Positions 3,797 to 46,694 of a stretch of 64,000 nucleotides of DNA are shown here, in pieces (within the stretch, counting starts at the first letter, position 1; each line of letters begins with the position of its first letter). The notes beneath the pieces were generated by a model that was not told the DNA's origin, made no database searches, and was given only the letters and a program-made list of their open reading frames with translations. Origin of the DNA: Cyanidioschyzon merolae (Eukaryota). The stretch lies in the NCBI GenBank assembly GCA_000091205.1, contig AP006494.2. One strand, written 5' to 3'. Made by a program: the position numbers and the translations under genes.

Positions 3797-3822
3797 CGTG
3801 TGTGTGTGTGTGTGTGTGTGTC
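3797..3822. repeat. (GT)n microsatellite, about 13 units
   Basis: Direct read: cgtgtgtgtgtgtgtgtgtgtgtgtgtc. Confidence 0.9.
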
Positions 3823-6800: not shown

Positions 6801-7426
6801 TCGATTACTCCTACCTTCGACTTATGGTTAACCATGCATGAAAGCATACATGCAGGTTTACGATTCACCCAAAAGAAGTCTTATTGAGTGGGACGGAAAC
6901 TCATTCCTCCTACGATGCACGTTCCTGGTTCACAACAAAACTGATGGGATGTTCGTGAACATCGACGGCCTCCAAGAGAATCGTGGGTTCTTTGTCTATC
7001 CGCCGCTCCTCATTACCATTCGTATCAAAGGTGCAGAATTTTCACAACCTGTGATTTTTTGCTAGCGTTTCTAATAGAATATATGCAATGGAATTCATGG
7101 GCAAGAAGAAATTCTTGTTGATATAGATAGATACGTTCTGTTTCCGATGCAAGACGCTCAAGATGTAGTATTCGACAGGCGTGGTTCATCCACCTGCTTC
7201 CGGTAGCAGAACTGACTTGTACACTTTAGACCGTATTGTTCAAGCTCCCAGTGGCAGCTGAAAGCCTCTCCTCCACGGCTGTCCAATACAACGCACACAT
7301 TTCTGATACTGGATACCTGCGAGACAAACAAAACGAAAACAAAAAGGTCTTCCTGATACAGGTATTCCGAAATTCGCTTTCCTTTATACAGTAGACTGGA
7401 AGCGTTTCCCTGAGCATCGCCGAACG

Positions 7427-13653: not shown

Positions 13654-14946
13654 ATGAGTGACACAATCCACCGGATAAAACACTTTTCTCGTGGCAGCCG
13701 TCGATGTTGCGTCGTGCTCCAGGATAAGAACGGGCCGTGTCCGCTGGTAGCACTGACGAACACCCTCCTTTTACGGGGAAGCCTGGCCCCTTTTCCTGCG
13801 GACATGGAGTACGTTTCGAGCGACTGGCTCTGCAACGTTCTCGCTGAATACCTTTTCGAAAAGCAAATACCGGCTTTGAGCGCGAACGCTGACCGGGTCG
13901 CTGACCTTGAATATGGCGTTGCGGACGTTGTCCAGCTTCTCCCGGTGCTTCAGCACGGCATGGATGTGAATGTCGGGTTCAGGGACTGCACGGATTACGA
14001 GCTAACTGCAGAGACGACCCTTTTTGACGTTTTTGGGGTCCTTCTGCTTCACGGATGGCTCGCTGACCCCTCGGACCAAGACGCCTACGAAGCGGTGTCA
14101 AGACGGCGCTATAACGCAGCGCTGGAAGTGCTCTTGCAGCACCCGACAGACGCGTTATCGCAGATGTGCTCGGAATCGGAGCCGGGAGCATCGGCAAACC
14201 TGGATGTGCTTCGCTCGTCGCCAGAAATTGCTTCGGCGCAAGTGCGAACCGAGATCTTCGCGAAAACTGCTCGCGCCGCAATATCCACAGATCGTGCCGC
14301 GGGAACACGTTCAACGGTCGAGAGCAATCCCTCTTGCCAGACGAGGCGCACTGCCGCAACGATGTCTCCAACTAAGGAGGCTCAAGAAGCTGAAGAATCC
14401 GAACGAGGAGCGGAAGCAGCTCATATACGCCGCTTCATAGAGAACTCGCCGACGCAGCTTACGTATCGGGGGTTGATTCGCCTGCATGAAATTCTGCGCG
14501 AGGGCGAGTATGCAGTGTTCTTCCGAAACAATCACTTTTCCACCATAACGAAGCACGACGGTGTCCTCTACGTGCTCGTGACCGACGAGGGCCTGGCCAT
14601 GACTCGAGGGGTGTTTTGGGAACGATTCGATGACCTGGATGGGGATACGGTGTTTGTCGATGAGAACTGGGAGCCGGCGAATGCAGCACGATGCATGCCA
14701 GACGCTCTCGAAAGCGCCTCAGCAGCGAACCGCTCTGCAGCGCATCGGACTCAGACCGGCCCTGTCGCAGGCGAGCGGTATGCAAAAGACCCAGCGATGC
14801 GTGCTTTTTCGCCGCCACGCCAGAAACCGGACGCCTCAGCGGGAACTTGGACGCCAAAAGCGCTAAAACCAACCTCACAGAAAAAGACAGCAGCTACAAC
14901 GTGTGCGGGTCAGTCGCCAAGGCACTCTCGGTGCAGCGTGCAATGA
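13654..14946 (+). CDS. MINDY-family (FAM63/DUF544) deubiquitinase
   Basis: The ORF-track start at 13612 is TTG; the first ATG is at 13654. Catalytic-Cys context QDKNGPCPLVALTNTLLL. Also present: GMDVNVGF, LLHGWLADP, PTQLTYRGLIRLHEILREGEYAVFFRNNHFSTITKHDGVLYVLVTDEG, VFWERFDDLDGDTVFVDENW. These are collinear with human MINDY1/2. Confidence 0.8.
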   Translation: MSDTIHRIKHFSRGSRRCCVVLQDKNGPCPLVALTNTLLLRGSLAPFPADMEYVSSDWLCNVLAEYLFEKQIPALSANADRVADLEYGVADVVQLLPVLQHGMDVNVGFRDCTDYELTAETTLFDVFGVLLLHGWLADPSDQDAYEAVSRRRYNAALEVLLQHPTDALSQMCSESEPGASANLDVLRSSPEIASAQVRTEIFAKTARAAISTDRAAGTRSTVESNPSCQTRRTAATMSPTKEAQEAEESERGAEAAHIRRFIENSPTQLTYRGLIRLHEILREGEYAVFFRNNHFSTITKHDGVLYVLVTDEGLAMTRGVFWERFDDLDGDTVFVDENWEPANAARCMPDALESASAANRSAAHRTQTGPVAGERYAKDPAMRAFSPPRQKPDASAGTWTPKALKPTSQKKTAATTCAGQSPRHSRCSVQ

Positions 14947-15482
14947 TTGTGCTGCAGAAAGGAGGGCATGCATACAAGTTTATGCTTTGCGCTGAGTCGA
15001 TGCAAGGTTGCTGGTTAGGCGCGTCGTGCCAGCATCCAGATACATTTGTTATCGAGAGCAGATGCTCTGGCGCAAGCCATGCACTGAAACGAAATCGTTG
15101 CCAAACCGTGATCTCCCGTGTGCGTCACCTGTTGTGGTGACACCGTCGGAAATGAGTGCAATCGCGTGAAACTCGTTTCTCTTTCAAGAACGGAATCGCG
15201 TGCCGTTTACGCAGCGCCCACGCGCCTCGCATGCAGCAGTTTCGTCGTCTCCAAAGCGATGGTGAGTCATGCATCACGCTTCACGCGGAATGCAACACAG
15301 CCTGAGCATAACTTGTACCCCGCTGTGGTGTGTCGTGCGCGAAACTGCCTTCACTCACTGACGTCGCGACGAGCAGTCCGTGGTGTGCGTACACGGATCA
15401 TGAGCAAGCCCCAGCTCAGAGTAAAATGGAACAGGTCCACTGAGCTAACTCGTGTATAGACGCTCAAGTTTGTGTCTATTTT

Positions 15483-16112
15483 CACTGCCATGAACACCAG
15501 CATCTGGAAACTATGTCCGCGACTGCTTCCTGTTCCTGTATTGCGCATCACCGGCTTTGACGACGCCGGTCGCGCCAGTCCGCCCGCCTCTATTCTCAAC
15601 AGTCGAAGGATGCTGAAAACAGCGTCCGCGTTCCGATTTCGCCGTTCACCGCTGCTTCCGGCACATCGCATACACACACAAATACGGAGATCTACGCTAG
15701 CCGTGTCATTTCCATCTTGGTTGCATACAGCCTCGGTACGCGCTTCACAGCGCCGACACCGCGCTGTGGTTACCTGCACTCATTCGTTCTCTGCACGTCG
15801 ACCTGCGTCGAAGACCACCCTGTGGCGCGTGAACGCTCGCTTCATCGCTCGGCACACGCCGCTCACGAGTGTAGAACGCTCAGCTCGATACACACCTCGA
15901 TAGCAGCGCCCAGAGCTGCACACACTACAAGTACAGGCCTCCTCTGGGCGATCTGCTACGTGCGTACTCTATCCGCTACAGGTGCAAGCGCACGGTGTTC
16001 GATTCGATAGACAATTCGTGTACTGCGATATTGTCCATGATCAAAGAGGTGATCGGAAATCCAGTCCAGACTGGAGAACAAGTCGACACGTTTCGATCGG
16101 TCTATAGTCCTT
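15483..16112. repeat. dispersed repeat family A, copy 1 (about 630 bp)
   Basis: About 98.6% identical to 27456..28085 in the same orientation (offset 11,973 bp). Identity starts at cactgccatgaacaccagcatctgg and ends at gatcggtctatagtcctt. No TIRs or TSDs seen. No recognisable coding content. Confidence 0.85.
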
Positions 16113-16254
16113 CTGTGGATCACGGTGACGGACGTTTCACTGGAATGAGTCGCAAGGATGGCTCACGTCCGAGCCCAGGGCCCTTTTTCCGCGCAAACGC
16201 ACGCGACGGGATCCTCGAGGGGGCAGCGTATCCCCCGGGAGCTACGAAGCTGCC

Positions 16255-16275
16255 GCTGCTGCTGCTGCTGCTGCT
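16255..16275. repeat. (GCT)7 trinucleotide microsatellite
   Basis: Direct read: gctgctgctgctgctgctgct. Confidence 0.85.
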
Positions 16276-22299: not shown

Positions 22300-22575
22300 C
22301 TCCGACCCCCGGTCTTCGGGACCGTCAGTCGTCGAAGCCGCCCCCGTCTTTTTCATGCAATGCTCCTGCATGGCTTTGATAGTGATGCAAGCTTGAAGCT
22401 CAGTGCGACGTCGAATGCCCCGACACGTCTGCTTTGCGCGAACCCCCGGTCTGCGGGAGCGGCAGTCGTCGAAGCCGCCCCCGTCTTTTTCATGCAATGC
22501 TCCTGCATGGCGTTGATAGTGATGCAAGCTTGAAGCTCAGTGCGACGTCGAATGCCCCGACACATCTACTTTGCA
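22300..22575. repeat. tandem duplication, 2 x ~138 bp (~90% identical)
   Basis: cccccggtctKcggg...gtcgtcgaagccgcccccgtctttttcatgcaatgctcctgcatggcKttgatagtgatgcaagcttgaagctcagtgcgacgtcgaatgccccgacac occurs twice head-to-tail. The ORF track shows a duplicated peptide, SRRSRPRLFHAMLLHG[FV]DSDASLKLSATSNAPT. Confidence 0.8.
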
Positions 22576-23783
22576 CGATCGAAAGTGCTGCGCTTCCCCG
22601 CAGCCGCTGCGCAGCGATGCGAAGCGGCACGTTGCATGCCTGGGTGCCGCCCGCGAGCCCCTTTCGGACCCATGGATCATTGGGCAGACTTGGATGCCCC
22701 CACATGCCGGATGCTTTCCGTCAGAACCCCGTACTCATACTGCAAGCGCGCCCGTGAGCCCGAACCTCGTGCAGCAGACGCTGTCGCCCATGTGCACCTA
22801 TTGGTGATGTGTCCGCGACAACAGCTAGGCTCGATGTCACCGCGGATGCAAGCTCGATGCTCGTCCGAATGCATTTCTGTTCCTGTGCGTATAGGGCTGG
22901 ATCACGTTCCGAATACATGGACGGGTGCCACAGACTGGAAAGCGTACTCTATTCAGGGCGATCTGTGCGCTATATTTTGAGTATGACGCACATCAGTCCC
23001 GGAGTCGTATGAAAAGCTCTAATGCGTTCGAAAACAGGCGGAAAAGGCTGATGGAAATCCGCCCGCGGACGCGATGCGCTCGGGCATTCGCCACAGAACA
23101 ATGCTTTCGCAACGGCGCCAACGTTTCACTGAGCACGACTCGAACGCAGAGCGTATATCGTAAAATTTCTTTGTCGCAAGCGCTGGCTTCGAGTAACGGA
23201 CCCTTGTCGACATCGAATACTCAGCTTTACGCTTCACGCTCTGTGCGATAGCAACTGAATGAATGTCCACCATTCGAAAACAAGCATGTCCAAACAGGCG
23301 TTTCCCGCACTCGTACATGAATGTGCAGCAACACAACAATGCAATCAGGTTCATGGAAGATATTCGCATCTACGCAAAAAGAATCATGTCTCGATCTGCA
23401 CCGCTGATCAGGTGCGACGATCGATACAAAGTGCGATCCGAGTACCCGGAATGCGTTCCGCGAGCCGGCGACCTTTGCAGCAATCCGGAAAAGCAACGAT
23501 CCTTGTCGGTCTGATGCTACGATCGATACAGAACGCGATTCGTGTATCAGAATCGCCATCTATGCATATGGCCCTGCGTGCGATCGAAAAACAAAGCAAC
23601 GATCAGCTTACGAGTCGCAGCCGGTATCACCTGAAACTCTGAGGCGCCGCCAGAGCTTGGCCACAGAACGTCGATTGCCCAATGCTGGAGATGCCGTCGA
23701 TGCTCGATCCCCAGAGGGCCGCACGCAACCGCTTTCAGCCAAGTCGTTCGACGAGCTCTGCCACAAGCAATCCGCCTCATGCG

Positions 23784-26264
23784 CTAGCGCGGCGCAGAAA
23801 CCCTGTCTTGTTCGATCCCAAAGATGGCTCGAATGCCTCGCAGCGTAGCGCGTTCCATCAGATTCGTGACAATGTCCATGAGCAAGCGCTTGCCCTCTCG
23901 TTTGGATCCAATCAATTGCAGAATGGGAAGGAATTTGCGACTGTCTACTGCATAGGGCAGGAGGAGCGATTGGATGCTCGGGGTCTCTGAGACACCGCGA
24001 ATGCTGCGTGCCAGAGCCGAATTCGCAAGCGCCAGCGAAAGCGCCTTTTGAAAATATATCATCGACTTGGTCGGTACCGGTCGTTTGCCTTGCAGTAACT
24101 GCGTGTTGTAGCTGACGGTGTCTAAAATAAGCTGATCAAACTCGTTGACCAGGTCTTCGGCCAAATGTCGACGGATAATATCACCGCGCGGACTCAGGAT
24201 GAATTCGAGAAGTTGGCTTGCAACAACGCTGAAGTCGTATTCAGAGGTCAGCGATGCTGAATCCAGCAGGCTCTCGAGGCGACTCCATCGAATACGGCCG
24301 TCCTTGAAAAGAAGCACGGACAGAGCGTTCTGAAGCTCTGGTGCGGGATCCGTCAGCAATCGCGATGCAATATACGGATACGCATTGTTGATGATCTTGA
24401 AATCTCGGCGGACTTGGATAGCGAGTCCCTCCAAAACGCCGAGGCAACGAATAATTGCTGTGTAATACGGAGGAAGGCGGAATGGAAACTTGTACATCAC
24501 TGAACCAAGCTTGTTGATTACCGACTTGAAGTTCAATTCGGATACCGAGGCATCCAGTACGTCCGGTAGAGCCCGATTCAGGGCAGCTACCAGTGGTGCA
24601 AGATCAGTATCAGGTGGAATGAAGCCTAATCTCACGTACAATCGGGCGAGTGATTCGAAATCTCGATTCACCATATGCATCACGGCCTCAATGATGCCAT
24701 AGCGTTGCGCTGGTTCTACTTCACTGACCATGCCAAAGTCAAGCCAGCACAGCTTGCCATCTCTCGTGGCGAGTAAATTACCCCCGTGCGGATCGGCGTG
24801 AAAGAAACCGTTCTCAAGCATCTGGCGCAGAGAACACTGAACCATGATCTCTACGAGTTTCTGCGCTTGGGCGTCGCTCAAACAGGGCGAGTTCAGGCGA
24901 ACTCCGTCCACCCAAGACAGGGTTACGACGCGGCGACGGGTGTACTGCCAGTAGATCTTGGGCACGACAACATCCGGGAGCGAGCCGTATAATTCCCGGA
25001 AACGTTCCGCATTCCGTGCTTCGTTCAGGTAATCGATCTCTTCGAAAATCAACTTGCCCAGTTCGTCGATGATGGAGACGAGATTGATATCTCGCCGCAG
25101 GAATGTCAGCATACGACTTAGGATGCCGCTCAATTCGCGGAGAATGTAGATATCCAGCGATATGATTTTCTCACAATCCGGTCTCTGGACTTTCACCGCA
25201 ACCGGCGTATCCTTTCCATCTCGTAGATATGCCTTGTACACCTGTCCTATGGATGCCGCAGCAACCGGTTCAGGTTCGATTCGAGAAAATATCTCATGAA
25301 CAGGTGCCTGCAACTCTTCCTCTATGATTCGATATGCATCCTCATTCTTGAAAGGTGGCAGGCGATCTTGCAACTTTTGCATCTCATCGAGATATTCGGG
25401 AGGCAGGAGATCGGGGCGGGACGCCAGCGCTTGTCCGGCCTTGATGAACGCAGGTCCCAAGTTTGAAAAAATCTGCAAAAATTCCGCAGCACGAATCTTT
25501 CTTCTCTCCTGCTCTTTTCCCATCTGGATGTCTAGAACCACTCGACCTATGAACACGAAAAGTGGTGCCGCGATTCGCGCCTGCCTTGTGCGGACAAGCA
25601 ACGTCTGCCGAGCATACTTCTCGCGCAACCGCTCTGGGTCGTATCGAACCGCAGGCGCCGCTGACTTGACGATGGTCTCGTAGTTCCAGGCGCTTGCGTC
25701 GTTCCCACGAGCGTCCATATGCATGCTGGCCCGCTCTTCGACACGTTTTATGATAGACCGTTCAAAATCCGCCGTCTGAAGAGGAGCCGCAACAGACGCC
25801 CTGCCTGTCAAGGCGGTGCTCGACTGTCTCGCGGTTTCACGCACGAGCTGGAGGGCACGCTGCGCCTCCAACAGGCGCCAGGAGCCAGTAGGCACCGTGT
25901 CTGCGTTGTGCTCGGGCACGTGGTTGGAGCTCGAACTGCCTGCACCTGGGGATGTGGGCCCTGCTACGCTCGCGCGTTCCGTTGCAATCATATACAGTCG
26001 ACGCGAATTGTAGACTCTTCGGTGACAGTTGCCTAGACCTGACTGACTGTACGGTCGCTCTTGATAAAGTCGACGTCCAAGCTCGCAATGCGCCCCAGGC
26101 GACGTTCCTGTCGGCAAAAATAGCCGCTGGATGCCGCTGAACTGGACGAAAAGCAGATAAAACCGACGCGAGTGACTACTCAGTGAACGAGTTGCATGCG
26201 CCATAGCACTGTCTTCACTGTTGAAACAAGGAAGCAACCGCTCGTGAGCCGAGTCAATCAACAT
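23784..26264 (-). CDS. ABC1/ADCK (UbiB-family) atypical protein kinase
   Basis: The ORF-track start at 26282 is GTG; the first ATG is at 26264. ABC1 motifs: AGQALASRPDLLPPEYLDEMQKLQD, AAASIGQVYKA, VAVKVQRPDCEKIISLDIYILR, HADPHGGNLLATRDGKLCWLDFGM. A long C-terminal extension resembles the plant plastoglobule ABC1K type. Confidence 0.85.
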   Translation of the reverse strand: MLIDSAHERLLPCFNSEDSAMAHATRSLSSHSRRFYLLFVQFSGIQRLFLPTGTSPGAHCELGRRLYQERPYSQSGLGNCHRRVYNSRRLYMIATERASVAGPTSPGAGSSSSNHVPEHNADTVPTGSWRLLEAQRALQLVRETARQSSTALTGRASVAAPLQTADFERSIIKRVEERASMHMDARGNDASAWNYETIVKSAAPAVRYDPERLREKYARQTLLVRTRQARIAAPLFVFIGRVVLDIQMGKEQERRKIRAAEFLQIFSNLGPAFIKAGQALASRPDLLPPEYLDEMQKLQDRLPPFKNEDAYRIIEEELQAPVHEIFSRIEPEPVAAASIGQVYKAYLRDGKDTPVAVKVQRPDCEKIISLDIYILRELSGILSRMLTFLRRDINLVSIIDELGKLIFEEIDYLNEARNAERFRELYGSLPDVVVPKIYWQYTRRRVVTLSWVDGVRLNSPCLSDAQAQKLVEIMVQCSLRQMLENGFFHADPHGGNLLATRDGKLCWLDFGMVSEVEPAQRYGIIEAVMHMVNRDFESLARLYVRLGFIPPDTDLAPLVAALNRALPDVLDASVSELNFKSVINKLGSVMYKFPFRLPPYYTAIIRCLGVLEGLAIQVRRDFKIINNAYPYIASRLLTDPAPELQNALSVLLFKDGRIRWSRLESLLDSASLTSEYDFSVVASQLLEFILSPRGDIIRRHLAEDLVNEFDQLILDTVSYNTQLLQGKRPVPTKSMIYFQKALSLALANSALARSIRGVSETPSIQSLLLPYAVDSRKFLPILQLIGSKREGKRLLMDIVTNLMERATLRGIRAIFGIEQDRVSAPR

Positions 26265-27455
26265 ATTGATCGACCTAGGCACTTACAAAGAGGCACAACC
26301 TGTCCGGTTTTAGCCAGGGTCTAGACCCCCCCAGCGCGAGTTCCTATTGTGCTCGAAGTGCGCTCCACAGCAGATATGCCACAAGCAGGTACGCTTTCTG
26401 AATACGGTCGCTGCGATGCCCTGCCGCGCGCTGCCCGCATGGATCACCTTTAGGAAACATCCGGATTCGCAGGTAGAGGCCTTGGGAAGCGTACCAGAAT
26501 ATGTAGCTTACTTTCCGATCTCGCTTTCATTTCATTTTGAATGTAGAATTGCAAGTACAGATTGCGGCCTTGATCTTTCCTAGTCTGCTGACATGACGTG
26601 GCCAAGGACGCATTAGAGAGAAGCTGGCAGAGGAAAATACAGAAAAGGCCTGGCGATCCAGGCTCGTGCAATATACTGATCTCTTGGTCGCACCGTACCG
26701 ACTCCACGAGCGCCGTACTCATCGAAGAAAGCGCTGCAGTCCCCAATGGGTACATTTCGGGTTGGTACAGGCCAGATGTTTCAGTGCTTCCGCAATCTTT
26801 CCACCCGCTGCATGCAATTGATATGGCAGAGACGCAGCTTCCGCTTCGATGTCGTGCGATTCCAGCATCCCGGAATAGACCTATACGAATGCAACGTTTA
26901 CGCATCAGACAAGGTTCCGTCAATGTATATTGAATACTTGCAACGACCAGAAATGCGTTCAACCTGCCATTGCACTGAGAAAGATCTGTGGAAACACAGC
27001 ATCCCCATTTTTTGACTGGATGCGGCAGCGGTCGTGCCTACAAGTTGGCGGCAGAAATCTCCTGAAACGTCTCCATGTAGCCAATGATGCGCCCATGGCT
27101 GGTTCTCCACGAACATCCGCAGTTCCCTGCACTCTGCTCATCATAGACTGCCATTCGGCCGAGTGACCCTTACAGAACCCATCTCGAAGCACCGCAGCTG
27201 CTCATGTAAAATAGGGAGTCTCATAGGCTGCCCGCTGTTTTACTGCATTTCCAAGACGACTCCCTAAACTGTGTAGCTCGTCGCCGTATCACTCCTGGTG
27301 CAGCATTGTCGCCAACGCGTGCACATTTTCTGGCACGAACTGCGTTGGCGTCGCTCCAGCGCTTACTGGAGATTCCGTTGCACCCATGTCCGACTAGAAA
27401 GAGACCGTTCCGAGCAGTATTCTCTGATGTAGACTCTAGACTTCAATTTTCTACT

Positions 27456-28085
27456 CACTGCCATGAACACCAGCATCTGGAAACTATGTCCGCGACTGCT
27501 TCCTGTTCCTGTATTGCGCATCACCGGCTTTGACGACGCCGGTCGCGCCAGTCCGCCCGCCTCTATTCTCAACAGTCGAAGGATGCTGAAAACAGCGTCC
27601 GCGCTCCGATTTCGCCGTTCACCGCTGCTTCCGGCACATCGCATACACACACAAATACGGAGATCTACGCTAGCCGTGTCATTTCCAGCTTGGTTGCATA
27701 CAGCCTCGGTACGCGCTTCACAGCGCCGACACCGCGCTGTGGTTCCCTGCACTCATTCGTTCTCTGCACGTCGACCTGCGTCGAAGACCACCCTGTGGCG
27801 CGTGAACGCTCGCTTCGTCGCTCGGCACACGCCGTTCACGAGTGTAGAATGCTCAGCTCGATACACACCTCGATATCAGCGCCCAGAGCTGCACACACTA
27901 CAAGTACAGGCCTCCTCTGGGCGATCTGCTACGTGCGTACTCTATCCGCTACAGGTGCAAGCGCACGGTGTTCGATTCGATAGACAATTCGTGTACTGCG
28001 ATATTGTCCATGATCAAAGAGGTGATCGGAAATCCAGTCCAGACTGGAGAACAAGTCGACACGTCTTGATCGGTCTATAGTCCTT
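27456..28085. repeat. dispersed repeat family A, copy 2
   Basis: See copy 1. This copy carries an uninterrupted 205-codon ORF (27463..28080). Copy 1 has a stop in that ORF. The ORF is Arg-rich and not protein-like. Confidence 0.85.
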
Positions 28086-28472
28086 TTCTCCCCTACCTCG
28101 CCTCTGACTCTTCTTCTTCTTCATTTGCTCCTCTTCGCTCGATGCTCGACGAGAGGAGGAATCTCTCGTCTTATTCCTGCCGCCGGCGATGGAGGCCCTC
28201 CAGGATGCTTGAGTTTTAGATCCATGCCTTTCACTTGGGTTTTCCATTTCTTCAAACGAACGCACTTCGAATGCATCTGCAATGAACCGCGAAAAGCCTG
28301 TCACACCGGTGTCGGGTACGCGCGAGATTCACCGCATCGCTAACCGAATCCGGCAAGCGAGCGCATCTTCATTTCGAGCACCGCTGAGGCCAGGCCTTGT
28401 AGAGCTCGAGTTCTGGGGCTGCGAACGCGTCGCTGGTGGGAAAGTCGCCACCAAGCAGGGCTGGTTGTGGCT

Positions 28473-30677
28473 ATGACCTTCTGTAGACATTACGTCTACT
28501 TTATAGCGCCGTTTCATACGCGGCGTGAAACGCGTGCGTTCCTCAGGCCGCACCTCGTGAAAAAAGCGAGCCAGCAGCTGTGTCCGCAGCAGCAGCTACC
28601 GCAAAGTACCTACAAAAGCCGTGCGTTTCAGGCGTCGGGGACAACGCCCGGCCCACAGGTCCCGAGTTTACCGGAAAAAGGTGAAACTGGGGCAAGTTCG
28701 GATCGCTGGCAGCGACTGCGGCCGCAAATACTTGCGCTGCCTCGTTCGTGCGGTGTCTACTTTTTTCGGGACCGCAAAGGTCGTCTCCTGTACGTTGGCA
28801 AGTCGCTATGCATTCAGGAGCGTGTGGCCTCATATTTCCGAACCTCTTCCGTCGAACAACGAGGTAGACAAGTAATCGCTGCTCTAGACAGCGTTGATCG
28901 AGTGGAATACTTCGTGACTGGGAACGAAGTGGAGGCGCTCGCCGTCGAGTCCAACTTCATCCGTGAGCACCAGCCCCCCTACAATACACTACGCAAAGAT
29001 GACAAACGTTTTCCTTTTGTGCGCGTCACTTGGAGCGAAATGTATCCGCGCTTGGTGGTGACTCGCCAGAGGCCCCGCGTCAATCAGAACACTCGCGGTC
29101 GAGATCGCGTATATGGGCCTTTCGTCGATTCAAAGCTCCTCAACCATGTGCTTCGCTTTATTCAGCGCACTTTTCCGATGCGACAGCGGGCGCAGCCTCT
29201 TTTTCGGGATCGACCTTGTCTGAATTATGACATTGGTGTATGTCCGGGAGTCTGCCAGAAACAGGTAGACACAACGACATATCGAGAGGCTGTTCGCAGG
29301 GCCGAGCTCTGTTTGCAAGGCCGCGTAACACAGGTCTTGAGCGAATTACAAGCAGATATGCAGCACGCAGTTAAGAAAGAGGATTACGAACGCGCTGCAA
29401 GTCTACGCGACGCGATGCGGGCGCTGCAGCGGATAGCCGTCGAGTCAACGGTCGGCGTCGTTTCGAACCTGACACAACGGGTTCTGCTCATGAATGCCGA
29501 TTTTTCTGCCGATGTCGCCGCAGCGGCCATCACGCAAGATGGAAAGATTGTATCGATTGAACTTATCCAAATGCGGGATGGTATGGTGATGAATCGATTA
29601 CACTTCAGCCTTCGCGTTTCACCTCTGGTACGGGACACCGAAATGACCCACGCGCAGGGTTCGCGGGAGCAGTTGGATCACATCGCAGCTGCCGTATTAC
29701 AGCAAACGCTGATTGAGCATTATGCAAACCTTACGGATGCTAATGAGAATCCGGATGGGATTCTGGTTTATCCTGCTTTACAGGATCATTCGATCTTGGA
29801 AAAGTTATTTCAGGAGCGGTGGCGCTCCCGTCGAGTGCGTGTCGAAACACCTCGAACAGGATTACGGGCAGAGCTCGTACAACTGGCGAAAGAGAACGCG
29901 GAGGCGCATCTAAAGGATGCCTACAACCAGATCACGAACGCGGTGGGTCCGCTCGAAGATCTGGCCATGCGCCTTGGCCTTGCGCAACGTCCATTTCGAA
30001 TCGAATGCTTCGATATCAGTCATCTCAGTGGGACGTGCGTAGTCGCTTCGCAGTCCGTCTTTTTAGATGGTGTACCTGCACCGCATGCCTATCGTCGCTA
30101 TCGCCTGAATCAAAACGATTCTGACCCTGCGAAGGGCGCGAACGATCTCCTGAATATGCAACAGGTTCTGCGACGTCGTTTTCGACGTGCCGCAGAATCG
30201 GCGCCTGTCGACTTGCCGGATCTCGTGCTGATCGATGGTGGCATTGAGCAACTGAAAGCCGCATGCAGCGCCCTCGAAGCATGCGGACTCAGTCCACGGA
30301 CAGGAGCGCCTAATCTCATCGCCCTGGCGAAGCGAGATGAAGAGGTCTTCACCCTGCATTCAACGAGCCCTCTACAGCATTTTCGGGATGGATCCGTGGA
30401 CTCGATGGCGTTGCGCCTGCTTCGCCATATTCGTGACGAGGCGCACAACTTTGCCCTGCAATACCACCGCCAACTGCGAAACAGGGGCACTATGGCTTCC
30501 GTCCTGGAACGCATTCCTGGTTTAGGACCTGTGCGTATTCAAATCTTACTGAATCATTTTGGTTCGTTCGAGGGAATTTTCGGAGCTGGTTACCAGCAAT
30601 TGGCAGCGATTCCTCGGATCGGAGAGAAGTTGGCTCAGCGCATTCATGAGTATCTGCATGAAACGACTGGAAACTAG
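28473..30677 (+). CDS. uvrC: bacterial-type UvrC excinuclease subunit homolog (GIY-YIG, UvrBC motif, RNase H-like endonuclease, HhH2) with an N-terminal extension of about 85 aa
   Basis: The ORF-track start is GTG at 28467; ATG is at 28473. GIY-YIG region GVYFFRDRKGRLLYVGKS...YF. VYGPF...FPMRQR. UvrB-interaction-like ERAASLRDAMRAL. C-terminal HhH2 LERIPGLGPVRIQILLNHFGSFEGIFGAGYQQLAAIPRIGEKLAQRI. Confidence 0.85.
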   Translation: MTFCRHYVYFIAPFHTRRETRAFLRPHLVKKASQQLCPQQQLPQSTYKSRAFQASGTTPGPQVPSLPEKGETGASSDRWQRLRPQILALPRSCGVYFFRDRKGRLLYVGKSLCIQERVASYFRTSSVEQRGRQVIAALDSVDRVEYFVTGNEVEALAVESNFIREHQPPYNTLRKDDKRFPFVRVTWSEMYPRLVVTRQRPRVNQNTRGRDRVYGPFVDSKLLNHVLRFIQRTFPMRQRAQPLFRDRPCLNYDIGVCPGVCQKQVDTTTYREAVRRAELCLQGRVTQVLSELQADMQHAVKKEDYERAASLRDAMRALQRIAVESTVGVVSNLTQRVLLMNADFSADVAAAAITQDGKIVSIELIQMRDGMVMNRLHFSLRVSPLVRDTEMTHAQGSREQLDHIAAAVLQQTLIEHYANLTDANENPDGILVYPALQDHSILEKLFQERWRSRRVRVETPRTGLRAELVQLAKENAEAHLKDAYNQITNAVGPLEDLAMRLGLAQRPFRIECFDISHLSGTCVVASQSVFLDGVPAPHAYRRYRLNQNDSDPAKGANDLLNMQQVLRRRFRRAAESAPVDLPDLVLIDGGIEQLKAACSALEACGLSPRTGAPNLIALAKRDEEVFTLHSTSPLQHFRDGSVDSMALRLLRHIRDEAHNFALQYHRQLRNRGTMASVLERIPGLGPVRIQILLNHFGSFEGIFGAGYQQLAAIPRIGEKLAQRIHEYLHETTGN

Positions 30678-31507
30678 GAACGCATGCTGCGTGAATTCGA
30701 GCTCAAGTGTCTTAAATACTTTCTTCAGATATTTGAAGAAATGCATCGCCACGAACATTGTGTTCGCCAATCGATCTGCCACCAGCGATTTCCGAATCCC
30801 TGACCGATCCACGGCACCGCGGAGCGCTGGCACGTCCACTCGACGACAGCCACTTCGGACGGTGCGCCCTGACTCGGCCTCCACAGAGAGGCACCCCGGT
30901 GCTGCCGCATCGCCCTGCATCCACAACGGCGGCATGCAGATCGCCCCAGCCAGCGTCGCTGTGTGTGGATCGTCGCGCATGCTCGGATCGCGCGATCCGC
31001 TCGCCTTCAATGCGACAGGTGCTCCAACGCTTTGCCACGTGTCCGTTGCTGAATGCGTGCAGTCGCTATCGCCGTCACGCACGCACGCATGCACGCATGC
31101 GGACGTATGGCGGTATTGAGGCGTGTGCATTGGCGGGCGCTCTTTCTGGCACTGCAGCCGGGTCCAGCGACAGGCACGTGGCTCAGGGAGCAAGTAGTAA
31201 CGCCTCACCAGCATCGAGCTTGCGACGTGCAGGAGTGTACGCGGTGCATCGATGGAGACACGCCTACGGACACGTGTGCGACATTGGACTCTGGCAGTGG
31301 GCTGGCCTAGTCAGAATGCACTGACGGAGAGATGCAAATGCACACCTATAAAGCATGGATTTCGGCGAGCAACCAGGAGCATTTACAGTACACCACCCGA
31401 AAGATCCATGCAAGCAAACATTTCGCAGATACTCTGGGCGGCAACCAGGAAAACTGGACGTACACACATCCAGATCATACACACAGACCTGCGTCCCGCC
31501 CAAGGCC

Positions 31508-33433
31508 CTAGCTCGAGACCTCCGCCGAGTCGCCACCGCTGAGCCAGCGCGTGTGCCACCGCCGCCCCGGATCGTCCAGACGCTCGTAGCCGTGCGAGCC
31601 GAAGCAATCCCGCTGGGCCTGAACCAGCTGGCTTGAGCGCAGCACCGCCTGTCGATACGTGTCGTAGTACGAAAGGCTCGCGGTCAGCGCCGGCGCCGGC
31701 ACACCCAGCGATGCCGCCAGCCCGACAACACGCCTCCAGCTCTCGTGGCGACGTCCAATCTCCGCAGCCAGGTCAGCGTCCAGCAGCAGATTCGGCAGGC
31801 TGGGGTCTCGTCGAAAAGCGCCCTCGATCCGCTCAAGCAGCTGTGCCCGAATAATGCAGCCGCCCTTCCAGATGCGCGCAAGCTCCCCGAGATCCAGCGA
31901 CCAGCCCTGCTCGCCGCTCGCTCGCTGCAGCAGACTGAGACCCTGCGCGTAGCTACAGAGCTTGCTGCAGAAGAGTGCGTCCTCAATAGCAGCGATCAAC
32001 GCTCGCTCCGCCGATGCATCCGAACGCGACGTCGACGCCGACGCTCGTACAGAGCCAGACGCTAGGGCGGCGACACGCTCGGGAGCTGTGTCCGGTCCAG
32101 TTTCAGCTACACCGCCAGCGGCTCCGGGTGAGGCACCGGCGGCCGCCAACTCGGAGGCGTGCCCCGTACCCGAGAGCCGCTCGGGTCCGCGGAGCACCCG
32201 CGACGCACGCTCGCGCTCGTCCTTCCGCGCTGAGAGGAAGCGCCCGTCGAGCGCGGCAGCGATGGTCGGCACCGCCACGCCCCGCCGCAGTGCCTCCGTC
32301 ATCGTCCACAGGCCAGTGCCCTTGCTCTCACTCCGGTCGAGGATTTGGTCTACGAGCGCTGGCGCCGACGCTGCCGACGAAGACGTGTCAGGCACGCGTA
32401 GAATGCGCGCGGTAATCTCCACGAGGAAGCTTTGCAGGGCGCCCGCGTTCCACGAGGCAAATACTTCCGCAGCCGCCATCGCATCCAAGCCAACGGCACC
32501 CCGAAGCAGGTCGTATGCCTCGCCGATCAGCTGCATATCGCCGTACTCGATCCCGTTGTGCACCATCTTCACATAGTTCCCCGAGCCGCCCGGCCCAATG
32601 TAGGTAACGCACGGCCCAGAGCCGGGCACCTGCGCCGCAACCTGCTCCAGCAGCGGCGCAAGCTGCTGGTACGCCTCCCGTGAACCGCCCGGCATCAGGG
32701 AAGGCCCGTAGCGCGCACCCTCCTCGCCACCGCTTACGCCCATGCCTACGTACAGGAGGCCGCGTGCCGCGACAGACGCAGCACGTCGCTCCGTATTCTC
32801 GTACCACTCGTTGCCGCCGTCCACGATGATGTCGCCCGGCTCCAGAACCTCAGCCAGCGCCTCGACGGTTGCGTCGACTGCGCTCCCCGCCTTCACCAGC
32901 AGGAATACCCGCCGCGGACGCTTCAGCGAAACCACAAACGACCGCAGGTCCGCAAAGCCGGTAACGCTCCCGCTGGCTGTCGTGTCATCTGCCGCGAGCT
33001 CCCGCTGCGCCCGCTCAACAGTCTCCGCCGTCCGCGCATACGTTCGATTGTACACAGAGACTCGCCAGCCGTGCGACGCTAGGTTCAGTGCAAAGTTCTG
33101 ACCCATGACCGCAAGGCCAATGACACCCGCGTCCGATATTGCGCGACCTGCAGGATGTGACGACGCGCTTTCCCGGACAGCACTCGACGGAGACGAGCCC
33201 TCCGCCGCAGACATGACGGCAGCACCACATGCTTGTGCGCGGCGGCCTCGGAGCAGGCACCAGCGAGCGCTTCGGACCAAGCTCAGGCTCCATGTCGGGT
33301 ACGTACGCCTGGGTGTCCAGGAGTGCGCACGCGGAGGCGCCCAGCGTCCGAAGCGCACCGCAGCGACAGGTGCGGCGGCCCAGCACAGCGCACCGCCACT
33401 GGGACTCCGGCGAGTGCCCGCTGTCGTCGCCAT
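31508..33433 (-). CDS. 6-phosphogluconate dehydrogenase (decarboxylating), with an N-terminal presequence and an Ala/Ser-rich insertion
   Basis: The ORF-track start at 33487 is GTG; ATG is at 33433. Motifs: IGLAVMGQNFALNLASHG, GGNEWYENT, GMGVSGGEEGARYGPSLMPGG, GSGNYVKMVHNGIEYGDMQLIGEAY, GTGLWT, WKGGCIIRA, DCFGSHGYERLD. Confidence 0.9.
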   Translation of the reverse strand: MATTAGTRRSPSGGALCWAAAPVAAVRFGRWAPPRAHSWTPRRTYPTWSLSLVRSARWCLLRGRRAQACGAAVMSAAEGSSPSSAVRESASSHPAGRAISDAGVIGLAVMGQNFALNLASHGWRVSVYNRTYARTAETVERAQRELAADDTTASGSVTGFADLRSFVVSLKRPRRVFLLVKAGSAVDATVEALAEVLEPGDIIVDGGNEWYENTERRAASVAARGLLYVGMGVSGGEEGARYGPSLMPGGSREAYQQLAPLLEQVAAQVPGSGPCVTYIGPGGSGNYVKMVHNGIEYGDMQLIGEAYDLLRGAVGLDAMAAAEVFASWNAGALQSFLVEITARILRVPDTSSSAASAPALVDQILDRSESKGTGLWTMTEALRRGVAVPTIAAALDGRFLSARKDERERASRVLRGPERLSGTGHASELAAAGASPGAAGGVAETGPDTAPERVAALASGSVRASASTSRSDASAERALIAAIEDALFCSKLCSYAQGLSLLQRASGEQGWSLDLGELARIWKGGCIIRAQLLERIEGAFRRDPSLPNLLLDADLAAEIGRRHESWRRVVGLAASLGVPAPALTASLSYYDTYRQAVLRSSQLVQAQRDCFGSHGYERLDDPGRRWHTRWLSGGDSAEVSS

Positions 33434-33777
33434 CCTTGAGGCGATCCACAGGTGGTTTGCGTGACCGAGGGCGGCCGGCCTGTTCACCGGGTGCGCCTCC
33501 TCGGTCTGCCGCGCTCTAGACGGGACAGCGCGCAGCGACTGGCCGTCTGGTGCTGCTTCCGGGACTCCTCAGCTGCCGATCCTGTGCCCCGGCGCGAGCA
33601 CTCGGCGACTTGACGTCTGGTGCTCGCTCAAGTCTCTCACGGTCACTACGACAACACGCACGCTCAAAAGCTGAGCACAGCGGAAAACAAAACCGATCCG
33701 CGATGCACGGGGGTGCTGCAGATCGATGCAGTCCGCGTCACGAGTTCTCGCAGTAGCACGAATACCACCGACAATAA

Positions 33778-33798: not shown

Positions 33799-34876
33799 GC
33801 AACGCAACGTACTCGGTCCACAAACAGCCGCAGTCAGCGACGAATGAGCGGCTCGCTCAGTAGCTCGCAACTGCAGCTCCAGCACGAGTACGGAACGGAT
33901 CGCAGACAGCCGCCACGAGGCCGCAGCGCTACGCACAGCGCGCGACGCACCGTCAAGCGCTATCCTGCGCTGACGGCCGCCGCAGCAACGCAGGCGGATC
34001 GAATGCGCACGGGTATATATATGAATATGGAACCTTAATCATCACTTGCGTTCAAACCATAGCTGGAAACACCGCGTCCCATCTCGAATCGCGAAGTTAA
34101 GCAGCATTGGGCTCTCTGAGTACTGTGATGAGGGATCGCACGGGAAACGGGAGTGACGCAAGTTCGCTTTTGCCACCACGTCGCGCTGACCTGTTCTAAA
34201 GCGCGCATCAGCAGACGCGAGCCGGGTAGTCTGGCGGGGAAGCACTGTGAGGCCGGCTTGCTCCGGAATACACTTGCAACCGGTGGTCCAGATCGACGAC
34301 GATAACGAGTGGGTAACTGCGGAGGCCTGGTTGCACAGAGCGATCTTGCAGCGCTACGAACCGCAACACCTGCCGATATTCTGGAGGAGGTGCGATCGCC
34401 CCCGCACGACGAACCCCGTAGCACCCAGAGGGAGTACGCACCCGCGCTACACCATGAATGCTAAAAAGGGCGGCAGGGCAGGGGCTGTCGCCCCGAACGC
34501 GTATTGCAGACAAACTAGCGCGTCACGTTCATGTGCGTCGCGTTCTAGTCCGTCGCACAGCAACAGGAGCACTGGAAAAGATCATAAGCCAGCATGCTAC
34601 CGTGCAGCGCACTGTACCGCCTTCGCTTTACGTCATACGGAACTAGACAGGAAAGTTGCCACCACGCCAGCCACGACTCCATCGATGCGAGCATCGCGCG
34701 TGCGCACGCGTGCCCGTCGCATCGACCCCTAAGCCGCCGTGTACCGAACACAACTGCCTCCGTTCGTCGCGAATGCGCAGCAACCTTCCCTCTGACACAG
34801 AAAAACACATCGTGTCCATCACAGACGCCGGTGACAAGGCCGCGTATAGCACCAACGAACTCGCCACGAATCCGCA

Positions 34877-43664: not shown

Positions 43665-45194
43665 GGATTCGCTCCAACAACCATTACAGAGCAGACCGTG
43701 TGCCCTAGTGCACGCAAAGTTCCGTCACCCGAACCGCGTCTATGCCAGCGAAACGCATCTAAAGCCCTAGCCCTCAGCGACCTGACACGGCTTCCTTGCT
43801 GACTGCACCTCTACGAAGCGAGCAGTACTCAGTGGTGCGAAGCGCAGTCGACGAGTCAGAGAAGGGACAGCAATGCTGGAACTGGATCCTATTTGAAGCC
43901 ACGGTGAATACAACCGTTCTGTAAGCGTTGTTGCGCGCACGCGTTCTAGTCTTTCAACTCGGTTCTGTGACACCCCAGGGAGATGGAACCGAATGCTATT
44001 CCGCATTGTATGGCAGGAGATCGAAACCACGATGCACAATGCTGTATAGGTCGAAGACGAATTGCCTGTAGCATCTATTCGTTACTGAACAGTGCAAGGG
44101 GGACTACATTCCTTCTTCAGGTCAGTCATACAACAGCACTCAGATGGACGAGGAATACTGAAAGGGAGAAGTGCATGCGCTTCGTACCAAAACCGTTGTT
44201 CTCAAAGAGTGCTTATGGTCAGTGGTATAAAACAAACCATTGAACACCTGACGGAAAGCAAAATCAACGATAGCAGCCACCTCGGATGTCTCTGTCTCTC
44301 AACAGCTTGTTCGTGTAGTCCTGCAAACACTGGAATAACGTCGCAAAAAAAGTCCTAGTTCGATCAAGATCAACTTTCACTGAAATCGCGCCTACAGCAA
44401 CCCTGGAACGTTGTGATCGGTATGAAGCAGAGCAACGTCGGTTTATTTTAGTCGATTAGACTTTCCTCGGGTGAAATGGTTAGAGCGTATACGGGTATTC
44501 GCGAAGCAGATATCCCATTCTATATACGATTGACCTCGAAGAGAACGAGGATTTCATCTGTTCTAACTGTGGTGGATTCATTCGCCTGCCTCGATTTCGC
44601 TCGTAACGAAGGCTCATACAACAGTACCAAACACTCTGTCGAATCGTTGAAGACTTGCCCCTGTCATCTAGTGACGTCCTTCAATTAGGCAACATGGTAT
44701 ATGGCCTCTAGCCTTGGGTTCGGACTTTTGCCGTTTCTGTTGAGGCCGAGCTGCTTTCCATTCGTCCGTACGCTCCGAGGTTCAACTCCATCGAAAGAGC
44801 GTTTTCTATTGTGAAGCGTAATAATCGCTACATCCTGCGAATCGCTGAAGCGTTTCGCAAATTGTGACAACAAGGCATATGTCATCTTTCTTCCGCAAGT
44901 CCTTTTTCCTCCGGGAACCTCCGCACCTCTTGGCATAAACGAGAGCATTCATTTTCAAAAGTAAAAACTCAAGGAAAATGTATAGAAATGTAAGCCGGGG
45001 ATCCTGGCTGTCTGGGGTGCCTGACTGCTGGAAACAAAAGGAACCCATTTCCATGCTCACAGGAACAGGAGAGAACCACGAAAGCACGAGCAGGAGACCA
45101 GACCTCAAAACTTGCCCAAAAGGGGAGACTACGACGAGCCTGTAGTGAACGTCTGCCTTCCTGGTCATACAAAACATCCGTACAAACAAAGGTA

Positions 45195-46322
45195 GCCTGT
45201 TACGCGAGGAACGCTCGCTCCGCTTCCCGCGCCTTGACACATCTCGTCACGCAACGATTCGTACGAGCTGTGGACGAAGGGATGCCAGCTGCTCATGTTT
45301 CTCTTCAGCGTCTCGATCAAACCTGCACGCGACAGCACAAGTGATGCTCGTTGCAGCAGATGCGATGAGCCCTGGTCGTGGAACCTGAGGGTTGCACAGT
45401 CGCCTCCCAGCGTCTGCTGACGAGTGGACGCGTTGGCTAGTTGCTGCGTCGCATCGCTGCTTCAGGAATCCATACGTCTGCAACGCACATGCCAAAACGT
45501 ATCGAGCCTAGCCCAGCAATCGTGTGCAGATCGCTGCGGGGCGCTTCATGAGGCGCACCCTGCCGCCGATGTCCTCGTTGCACCCGGGCCTCACTGGCCC
45601 GAAACAATGCGGAAAGCTAAAAGGGACGCTACACTCTAGATCGTAAAGAAGCGTCGAAATAGCGCTCGCGGATGATCTCGTGGCAGGTGCACACGATACC
45701 GCGCTGCTGTCGCCTCTGACTTTGACTCGACGGAGGCTAGAAGCGAGCAGTCGCCAACTTGCTCGATAAGCTGGAGAAGCGAACGACCGAGGAGTCGCGT
45801 CGATTGTTGCTTGCCTACGCAAACGGACGTGCTGGTGCGTCCGCGTGTCGCACACCAGCGCCCTCGACGGGAGCGTCCAGCGAGTACACAGGGATCGCAG
45901 CTGGGCGATTTCCCTGCAAGCGTTCGCGACGATACGGAAGCATCACGAGCGGGTGTGCGCAGCGATGCTCGCCGAGAAGCCAATCGTGAAACAGAGCCAG
46001 CTGCACGAGATGGTGCACGGTACGCTGGGCGGGCGCCAGACTGCGAGGGAATCAAAGGCGGGCCTCCCTGTACAGTGCGAGTCGACGAGCAACAACGCAG
46101 ACAGGCGCTCGCTGCACCGAGACCCGAACGCCTCGATCAGCATATGGACGAGTCACGTGCTTCCTGCGCGTCCAGCGGCGTTGTGTGGAACCATTCTTTG
46201 AGGTGATCGTTCCGTACACAGTCTAGACATTGTGCTGAAACGCTCAAGTCTATCGATGAGGAGAAATCGATTGCCAACAGAGAGAGCACGGAATGACCCA
46301 TCGGGGGCAGGGCGCTGGTACG
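45195..46322. repeat. dispersed repeat family B, copy 1 (about 1.13 kb)
   Basis: About 99% identical to 55029..56157 in the same orientation (offset 9,834 bp). At least six ORF-track peptides are duplicated verbatim (for example 45247..45495 = 55082..55330). Starts at gcctgttacgcgaggaacgctcgc and ends at ggcgctggtacgg. No recognisable protein domain. Confidence 0.85.
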
Positions 46323-46694
46323 GTACGCGTCGACCATGCATCAAACCTGGACCAACATGGACATATACATACCTGGAACAATATCCTACCCTATCCGTGA
46401 ACGATCATCGTGTCCCAGTATTCGACATTCATGCATATACCGTAAAACTGCACGCTTGGATAGTGCCTTTGGCCTTCAATCCATGCAAGCATCGGAACGG
46501 CATCCAGCGAGAGCTCAAGATGGCGCCTCACGTGCAAAGCACGAAGGACTGCAATGCGGACAGCAGGCTGGGCGCTGTCCACCGCGCGTTCCTGCCAGCT
46601 GCGCAAGCGCCGCCATCGGCTCGAGCTGCAATCTCCACACACGTGCGCGTACCGTAGCGCTGGAAAATGTTCGGTCAGTGTTCTGGGCGCCGCT

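Follow-up and report, generated by a model that had tools for sequence, protein, structure and literature searches.

The nuclear genome of the red alga Cyanidioschyzon merolae encodes a complete UvrC, CML058C, in which every module and the catalytic residues of both nucleases are in place. We consider that it is best explained as a plastid-targeted UvrC of endosymbiotic origin that acts in bacterial-type excision repair, a reading to which we give a probability of about 0.7 and in which we infer the plastid localisation of the protein, its dependence on UvrB and its incision activity. The gene itself is no discovery, since its annotation has stood in public databases for years, and it appears as 'excinuclease ABC subunit C' in the supplement of PMC12770821. 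A full-text literature search returned no paper on CML058C, its function or its localisation; the matches to uvr-type queries concerned UVR8, uvrD in Pyropia, or bacteria.

The gene lies in a window of 64,000 nucleotides from contig AP006494.2 (assembly GCA_000091205.1), and all positions given here are counted from the first letter of that window (Table 1). The open reading frame is intronless and runs on the + strand from a GTG at 28467, or from the first in-frame ATG at 28473, to 30677. It encodes 734 amino acids from this ATG, which is the only one in frame upstream of the GIY-YIG domain, and its product is an exact match to the C. merolae 10D protein BAM80681.1/XP_005536717.1. The original prediction took the gene for a nuclear eukaryotic one, and this holds: the exact match places it on a finished chromosome of 859,119 bp, and its neighbours in the window include SWI3, TAF8, ATE1 and MINDY. 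Its GC content is that of the neighbouring genes, and the gene order around it is kept in Cyanidiococcus. As also described at the outset, CML058C is divergent from an ABC1/aarF kinase gene, CML057C (23784-26282, - strand), and the promoter spacer between the two holds a repeat copy (27455-28085) that shares 98.6% identity with 15482-16112. In Cyanidiococcus the corresponding spacer is shorter, at about 950 bp. The dispersed repeats of the window match neither Rfam families nor tRNAs, and they show no convincing sign of coding.

Table 1. Features of the CML058C locus, in window positions; residue numbers are those of the 734-aa protein.
Feature	Position	Strand	Basis or remark
Divergent CML057C/CML058C intergenic region	26283..28472	.	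2.2 kb; holds one 631-bp dispersed repeat copy
CML058C CDS, 734 aa + stop, nuclear-encoded UvrC	28473..30677	+	Exact protein match; TIGR00194 457 bits
N-terminal extension, residues 1-79, putative organelle (plastid) targeting peptide	28473..28709	+	Absent from cyanobacterial homologs
GIY-YIG nuclease domain, 3'-incision site, residues 80-180	28710..29012	+	Pfam PF01541 (residues 93-171), PDB matches
Cys-rich motif C249-x7-C257-x3-C261 (RPCLNYDIGVCPGVCQ)	29217..29255	+	Three Cys invariant in 75/75 aligned sequences
UVR (UvrB-binding) motif, residues 287-320	29331..29432	+	Pfam PF02151, E 4.9e-9
Central UvrC RNase H-like domain, residues 351-481	29523..29915	+	Pfam PF22920, E 6.4e-14; confidently folded in AlphaFold model
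C-terminal RNase H-like endonuclease, 5'-incision site, residues 500-661	29970..30455	+	Pfam PF08459, E 2.8e-37
(HhH)2 DNA-binding domain, residues 678-731	30504..30665	+	Pfam HHH_5 + HHH_2; PDB 1KFT, E 4.3e-6

The claim that this is a full-length bacterial-type UvrC with all its modules intact is borne out by the Pfam domains and by the NCBIfam equivalog TIGR00194 (uvrC), which the protein matches at 456.9 bits (cut-off 285.45) over positions 6-570 of the 574 of the model. The AlphaFold model has a mean pLDDT of 82 and matches solved UvrC fragments. In particular, the GIY-YIG domain matches PDB entries 1YD6 (E 5.6e-18; Foldseek TM-score 0.87) and 1YCZ (E 8.7e-11), and the C-terminal endonuclease domain reaches Foldseek TM-scores of 0.80-0.83. 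A check of the catalytic residues had been proposed for the GIY-YIG and DDH sites, and by alignment all of them are present. Residues Y96, Y107, K110, R117, Y121, E159 and N171 align with Y19, Y29, K32, R39, Y43, E76 and N88 of T. maritima UvrC; the GIY-YIG catalytic residues are invariant in nine red-algal and cyanobacterial sequences, with Y96 only nearly invariant in an alignment of 76. The DDH triad is formed by D514, D588 and H658, placed by alignment to 2NRT, 8B0Q and 3C65 with the triad positions taken from the T. maritima structure 2NRT, and the three residues are invariant across the 76 sequences. The role of the UVR motif in UvrC is to bind UvrB. In CML058C this motif contains A308-A309-x-x-R312-D313, in which A308 and R312 never vary among the 76 sequences and A309 and D313 hardly do; it is present in 16/16 eukaryotic orthologs, position 309 showing two conservative substitutions, and from its sequence we would predict that it binds the C-terminal domain of UvrB.

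CML058C carries a leader that its bacterial homologs lack. The presequence announced in the original prediction does exist, but the extension before the first UvrC helix measures about 77-79 residues and not about 85. Its identity to the Cyanidiococcus-type orthologs is 18-31%, versus 77-83% in the adjacent domain. It is basic and rich in hydroxyl residues, with 7 K/R and a single D/E among its first 40 positions, and residues 1-58 are predicted to be disordered, as they have a pLDDT of about 33 and no secondary structure in the AlphaFold model. An N-proximal Phe is the plastid-import mark of red-algal and glaucophyte transit peptides. CML058C has a Phe at position 3 and F-I-A-P at positions 10-13, two Cyanidiococcus-type sequences carry F10-L-[VA]-P, and Porphyridium has F5, so that a motif F-[IL]-[AV]-P is common to three sequences of the Cyanidioschyzon/Cyanidiococcus type. 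Nearly all eukaryotic orthologs carry N-terminal extensions, the comparable ones being 37-143 residues long. Fast-evolving, basic, apparently disordered and with an early Phe, the CML058C leader would thus fit what is expected of a transit peptide. We provisionally place the protein in the plastid rather than in the mitochondrion because its ancestry is cyanobacterial and because its leader has these features of red-algal transit peptides.

The cyanobacterial ancestry is drawn from a broad set of relatives. Eukaryotic UvrC orthologs fall into at least 16 sequence clusters, among them those of Cyanidiococcus, Cyanidium, Porphyridium and Pyropia, and all 16 retain both active sites. In the tree, the red-algal UvrCs form one clade (90/100), which falls with the cyanobacteria (99/100); once ten more eukaryote-type sequences are included, the eukaryotes, the cyanobacteria and one further sequence, P0205, form a clade with 100% bootstrap. 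The Cys-rich motif gives a second mark of this grouping, as the fourth Cys position, the first of the motif and upstream of the other three, is an Arg (R239 in CML058C) in all eukaryotic and cyanobacterial sequences, versus a Cys in 25 of 38 other bacteria. The genes are embedded in eukaryotic surroundings elsewhere too: on the Porphyridium and Pyropia contigs the neighbours of the UvrC gene are eukaryotic, in Pyropia its coding sequence is interrupted by an intron, and another ortholog (P0183) adjoins genes for a protein kinase, a DRG GTPase and Cmc1. Purifying selection on CML058C is evident from its comparison with Cyanidiococcus (pN 0.23; pS 0.75, with synonymous sites saturated), while natural C. 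merolae variants offer only 8 differences, 4 synonymous and 4 non-synonymous, which are too few for an informative dN/dS. The original prediction had left endosymbiotic and horizontal transfer to be separated by phylogeny, and the tree favours a single ancient cyanobacterial acquisition of the red-algal UvrC. The simplest route would be endosymbiotic gene transfer out of the ancestor of the plastid, with the gene kept since then in red-algal nuclear genomes.

Cyanobacterial UvrC is the closest known counterpart, a sister group in the trees. It has the same order of GIY-YIG, Cys motif, UVR, two RNase H-like domains and (HhH)2, the same catalytic residues and the same Arg at the first Cys-motif position, with 37-42% identity over the mature region. 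CML058C differs from it in being nuclear-encoded, in its leader of about 79 residues, in lying outside any operon or bacterial genome, and in lacking an alternative Cys at position 184 that is present in 18 of 21 cyanobacterial sequences. Cho (E. coli ydjQ) shares the GIY-YIG 3'-incision domain and lacks the C-terminal half of UvrC. CML058C is not a Cho, as this half is complete and its NF007833 score of 49.6 bits is below the cut-off of 367. In eukaryotes, incisions flanking bulky lesions are made by XPG/Rad2, XPF-ERCC1 and SLX1, the last of which has a GIY-YIG fold. Apart from that fold, these enzymes are unrelated to CML058C in sequence and architecture. The C. merolae gene tables list XPG/Rad2, an XPA-binding protein and Slx4; the presence of XPG/Rad2 and Slx4 makes UvrC an additional system, of bacterial type, and with nuclear excision repair genes of eukaryotic type at hand it is not needed in the nucleus. 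The land-plant protein AT2G03390 is also nuclear-encoded with a UVR motif and is plastid-associated, and it was taken as indirect evidence for plastid nucleotide excision repair (NER) in land plants, but it consists only of the UVR motif and a YccV-like domain, without nuclease domains, whereas CML058C is a complete UvrC (PMC4824065).

The partners of UvrC have to be sought beyond the locus. The original prediction stressed that no uvrA or uvrB lies in the window; this is correct for its long ORFs but not remarkable, since eukaryotic genes lack operon organisation, so that the absence of the two partners is uninformative, and since a UvrB partner is, by annotation, encoded on another chromosome. 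This gene, CMG133C (BAM79644.1), is listed as 'excinuclease ABC subunit B' in three independent supplementary gene tables, and it is expressed. The gene tables, whose coverage is C. merolae chromosomes A to about L together with portions of two other species, list no 'excinuclease ABC subunit A' in that range, and a system without UvrA would not work canonically. UvrC and UvrB also differ in expression. RNA-seq gives about 220 normalised units for CML058C and about 35 for CMG133C, and the microarray signal of UvrC, which ranges from 732 to 16,257 over the day/night cycle (about 20-fold), is in the thousands where that of UvrB is about 60-116. Such an excess would not be expected of two strict 1:1 partners. 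The UvrC mRNA climbs toward dusk and early night, a course that the same table also shows for CDC6 and other cell-cycle genes, and the Cyanidiococcus ortholog has been detected by proteomics.

Taken together, cytosolic ribosomes would make CML058C with a leader of about 79 residues that can be cleaved off, and the protein would enter an organelle, most probably the plastid. There it would dock through its UVR motif on a pre-incision complex of DNA and UvrB, the latter supplied by CMG133C, and the damaged strand would be cut 3' of the lesion by the GIY-YIG site and 5' of it by the RNase H-like DDH site. The outcome would be a bacterial-type nucleotide excision repair of organellar DNA.

Of the two alternatives left by the original prediction, an organelle-targeted prokaryotic-type repair enzyme fits this evidence better than a repurposed stand-alone nuclease, which is disfavoured by the maintenance of the active sites and of the UVR motif in 16 eukaryotic orthologs. 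One may nonetheless imagine an organellar structure-specific endonuclease, independent of UvrA and UvrB, that serves in the replication or recombination of organelle DNA or in nucleoid segregation. The lack of UvrA among the annotated genes of chromosomes A to about L, the UvrC transcript far above that of UvrB and its CDC6-like rise toward dusk and early night speak for such a role, but a UvrB-binding motif kept as in bacteria, a UvrB gene that is retained and expressed, and two conserved incision sites, as dual incision requires, make it rather unlikely. We judge it unlikely as well that the same enzyme is mitochondrial, or dually targeted, and repairs mitochondrial DNA. Although a basic and acid-poor leader is also typical of mitochondrial presequences, the ancestry of CML058C is cyanobacterial and not alphaproteobacterial, its N-proximal Phe and F-[IL]-[AV]-P motif are marks of plastid import, and residues 1-58 are predicted to be unstructured instead of forming an amphipathic helix.

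The remaining explanations deny the gene its age or its function. A functionless, decaying relic has no supporting point that we could find; it is ruled out by the intact reading frame and catalytic residues, by purifying selection and conservation across 16 eukaryotic clusters, and by an abundant, regulated mRNA with an ortholog detected as protein. The chance that the gene entered by assembly contamination, or by recent horizontal transfer from hot-spring cyanobacteria into the Cyanidiales, seems close to nil, even if the best-scoring bacterial matches include the hot-spring cyanobacterium Thermostichus (about 40% identity). The orthologs of the mesophilic red algae Porphyridium and Pyropia form a single clade with those of the Cyanidiales, and this clade lies outside the sampled cyanobacteria and is not nested among them; recent transfer is ruled out by this phylogeny together with the chromosomal context and the synteny. 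Bacterial contamination, which the original prediction had named as a way in which it could fail, is likewise ruled out by the eukaryote-specific neighbours on a finished 859-kb chromosome, the matching GC content and the Cyanidiococcus synteny.

The plastid-targeted repair enzyme that we prefer touches on a wider question, since the existence of NER in organelles is still debated and the loss of uvrABC has been described as a hallmark gene loss of the endosymbiotic lifestyle (bioRxiv 2025.10.07.680570). Red algae are the clearest candidates for a bacterial-type NER that has survived in the plastid, because they have a complete, selected and expressed nuclear UvrC with a putative leader, along with an annotated UvrB. 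C. merolae is genetically tractable (PMC12770821). We tentatively raise the possibility, with somewhat less than even confidence, that red-algal plastids still run a working UvrABC-type NER whose incision subunit is gated by transcription to dusk and early night, so as to clear the plastid DNA damage of the light period around organelle and cell division. If this is true, true NER would for the first time have been shown in an organelle, the red-algal plastid.

By every criterion of sequence and fold that we tested, CML058C, the UvrC gene of the window, belongs to the UvrC family. Its reading frame has no introns and lies exactly where the original prediction had put it, and Pfam recovers all the UvrC modules claimed there (see the table). 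The NCBI equivalog model for UvrC, TIGR00194, scores the protein at 456.9 bits (cut-off 285.45), and the Cho model scores it far under Cho's own cut-off. The AlphaFold model, computed from a 76-sequence alignment, has a mean pLDDT of 82, is confident from about residue 74 on, and matches the solved GIY-YIG domain with a TM of 0.87 and the solved endonuclease domain with a TM of 0.80-0.83. Alignment to the solved UvrC fragments places the GIY-YIG residues Y19, Y29, K32, R39, Y43, E76 and N88 of T. maritima at Y96, Y107, K110, R117, Y121, E159 and N171, and, in the 5'-incision domain, the DDH triad at D514, D588 and H658. The catalytic residues of the two sites are all invariant in the red-algal and cyanobacterial alignment, and invariant or nearly so among the 76 sequences. 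Mutated active sites, which the original prediction had named as grounds against itself, are thus not what we find: both nucleases are intact.

The gene is also under constraint. All catalytic residues of both nucleases are kept in 16/16 eukaryotic sequences, as is the UVR core A-A-x-x-R-D, bar two conservative changes at position 309. Comparison with Cyanidiococcus gives a pN of 0.23 and a pS of 0.75, at which synonymous sites are saturated, and natural variants of C. merolae differ at 8 sites in CML058C, too few for an estimate of selection.

The protein is identical to BAM80681.1/XP_005536717.1, "excinuclease ABC subunit C" of C. merolae 10D, whose gene is carried by a chromosome of 859,119 bp. 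Genes of eukaryotic nuclear type (SWI3, TAF8, ATE1, MINDY, RNR small subunit, CPSase and GDH) are found elsewhere in the window, and GC content is even across CML058C and the neighbouring genes. Bacterial contamination, a concern raised at the outset, is excluded by these three observations, and the window is nuclear DNA with typical eukaryotic genes around CML058C. The gene order CPSase-ABC1-UvrC-6PGD-SWI3 is common to C. merolae and Cyanidiococcus.

Features of the window and domains of CML058C (residues counted from the ATG at 28473)
Feature	Position (nt)	Strand	Residues	Remarks
CML058C (UvrC)	28473-30677	+	734 aa	first in-frame ATG at 28473; GTG at 28467
GIY-YIG		+	93-171	Pfam
UVR		+	287-320	Pfam
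UvrC RNase H-like domain, first		+	351-481	Pfam
UvrC RNase H-like domain, second		+	500-661	Pfam
(HhH)2		+	678-731	Pfam
Cys-rich motif, first position	~29187-29189	+	R239	
CML057C, CML058C, CML059C	23784-33487			ABC1/aarF kinase, UvrC, 6-phosphogluconate dehydrogenase (6PGD)
137-bp unit, two tandem copies	22305-22578			95% identical; downstream of ABC1 kinase gene
631-bp dispersed repeat, copy 1	15482-16112			between convergent MINDY and CPSase genes
631-bp dispersed repeat, copy 2	27455-28085			~390 bp upstream of UvrC start codon
ORF spanning 631-bp copy 2	27463-28080		205 aa	mechanical ORF
5S rRNA gene	34044-34164	+		Rfam RF00001, 94 bits; between 6PGD and SWI3
1130-bp repeat, copy 1	45194-46323			ends upstream of ATE1 (46554, +)
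1130-bp repeat, copy 2	55029-56158			ends upstream of TAF8 (56574, +)
PIN_4 and PhoH-like ATPase ORF	48338-50560	-	740 aa	

Several features of the surroundings are worth recording. CML057C, CML058C and CML059C are adjacent and all belong to bacterial or plastid-type families; their order is kept in Cyanidiococcus (L007), and the UvrC-6PGD pair in Cyanidium as well, although the clustering may be a coincidence. Counted from its listed GTG start, the 6PGD frame extends about 120 residues ahead of its NAD-binding domain, and it lies where the GC content of the window is highest (0.67); the title of PMC2416651 calls gnd genes of some eukaryotes cyanobacterial. The 5S rRNA gene stands alone, unlinked to an rDNA unit. 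UvrC is divergent from the ABC1 kinase gene with a repeat in the spacer, as had been noticed from the sequence; this copy 2 of the 631-bp repeat (copies 98.6% identical) looks like an insertion, since the equivalent spacer of Cyanidiococcus is only ~950 bp. The copies of the 1130-bp repeat (99.0% identical) each end a few hundred bp ahead of a gene; they show no convincing ORF, match neither Rfam nor tRNA models, and could stem from recent duplication or be a mobile element carrying, or sitting in, promoter regions.

The closest relatives of CML058C are found in Cyanidiococcus (64% identity), Cyanidium caldarium (42%) and cyanobacteria (37-41%), and the Pyropia (34%) and Porphyridium (35%) proteins rank among the cyanobacterial matches. 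The genes of these last two lie on eukaryotic contigs, and the span of the Pyropia gene (L002 10001-12722) implies an intron. A neighbour-joining tree (116 sequences, 100 bootstraps) recovers red-algal UvrC as monophyletic (90) and groups it with a cyanobacterial clade (99). A word-indexed search with a red-algal profile returned no further eukaryotes, and an exhaustive search with such a profile returned ten additional representatives, scoring between red algae and cyanobacteria, with matches beginning 37-144 residues into the protein. They include an MMETSP marine-eukaryote transcript, a gene on a 109-kb contig next to Cmc1, a Ser/Thr kinase and a DRG GTPase, and P0177, a Pyropia/Porphyra-type protein of 957 aa with an Ala/Arg-rich leader of 143 aa. 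The deposited Pyropia vietnamensis model (P0036, 832 aa) begins right at the GIY-YIG domain and, compared with the near-identical P0177, is probably cut off at its N-terminus. All ten fall in the red-algal clade (69.5% support), and eukaryotes, cyanobacteria and P0205 together are a clade supported at 100%. This last homolog (1118 aa, L008 168-3524 on a 4.7-kb contig) branches beside the eukaryotes; its match begins ~125 residues in, and it has large insertions and an altered UVR motif (A-G-x-x-K-E).

The Cys-rich motif, which ligates a [4Fe-4S] cluster in E. coli UvrC, provides an independent shared character: its first position is Arg in 16/16 eukaryotic and 21/21 cyanobacterial sequences and Cys in 25/38 other bacteria, which supports a cyanobacterial origin. 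The position of residue 184 is Cys in 18/21 cyanobacteria and 3/16 eukaryotic sequences, and Arg in C. merolae; with R239 and mostly no Cys at 184, red-algal UvrC may or may not bind such a cluster. The phylogeny that was to bear on endosymbiotic versus horizontal transfer gives cyanobacterial affinity with 99-100% support. Its simplest reading would be a single ancient acquisition from a cyanobacterium before the red-algal radiation, with the plastid ancestor as the most economical donor, distance trees on long branches having no power to part endosymbiotic from equally old horizontal transfer.

The extension announced ahead of the GIY-YIG domain is present, although it measures ~79 aa to the first UvrC helix rather than about 85; cyanobacterial proteins have nothing equivalent to it. 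Its identity between C. merolae and Cyanidiococcus-type orthologs is 18-31%, against 77-83% in the adjoining domain. Residues 1-40 contain 7 K/R and 1 D/E, and residues 1-58 are predicted by AlphaFold to be unstructured (pLDDT about 33). Since no further ATG occurs between 28473 and the GIY-YIG domain, the intact enzyme is necessarily made with this leader, whose properties, as judged from sequence and model, are those of a cleavable organelle-targeting peptide. It starts with M-T-F and carries F-[IL]-[AV]-P at residues 10-13 in C. merolae and both Cyanidiococcus-type orthologs (3/3). Red-algal and glaucophyte transit peptides for plastid import typically carry an N-proximal Phe, and this, together with the cyanobacterial ancestry, favours the plastid as destination. 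A mitochondrial or dually targeted enzyme, to which such a leader might also belong, is the less likely alternative.

CML058C is thus an intact, selected and expressed UvrC gene with cyanobacterial affinity and a targeting-type leader, in a genome where UvrB is annotated. We infer, with a probability of about 0.7, bacterial-type nucleotide excision repair of plastid DNA: the protein would be imported into the plastid, dock via its UVR motif on a UvrB-DNA pre-incision complex, and perform dual incision, GIY-YIG cutting 3' and DDH cutting 5'. It is literally true that the window's genes include neither UvrA nor UvrB, but their absence from 64 kb of eukaryotic DNA carries no information, and it fails as a sign of an orphan: CMG133C (BAM79644.1), "excinuclease ABC subunit B", is annotated on another chromosome in three independent supplementary tables and expressed at a low level, so UvrC has a candidate partner. 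The same gene tables list XPG/Rad2 and an XPA-binding protein, components of eukaryotic NER, and the nucleus therefore has an NER system of its own.

A nuclease with a UvrAB-independent role is unlikely beside this annotated UvrB, though three observations speak for it. No "excinuclease ABC subunit A" occurs among gene-table entries spanning chromosomes A to about L. UvrC transcript is also in large excess over UvrB: in bacteria UvrC is the scarce subunit, so that the ratio in C. merolae looks inverted, with RNA-seq at ~190-240 normalised units for CML058C and ~35 for CMG133C. Finally, the timing of the UvrC mRNA is cell-cycle-like. In a culture synchronised by 12 h light/12 h dark, one microarray replicate (PMC6606799 Data Set S1) reads 2084, 732, 9605, 15406, 16257, 10752 and 7741 from h0 to h24, a swing of ~20-fold from a morning trough (h4) to a maximum around dusk and the early night (h12-16), and UvrB stays flat at 62-116, roughly 100-fold lower. 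The Cyanidiococcus ortholog of UvrC is expressed at a TPM of 76-129, and its protein is detected in the proteome.

CML058C has been annotated for a long time and is as such already known, and the original prediction correctly read an ordinary, though biologically interesting, annotated gene; our search of the open literature found no functional study of it. It differs from bacterial UvrC solely in its nuclear encoding and its leader. The land-plant "uvrB/C" gene AT2G03390, which has just a YccV-like domain besides its UVR motif, is not comparable. What gives the finding its value is the tractable test it suggests of whether a plastid has true excision repair.
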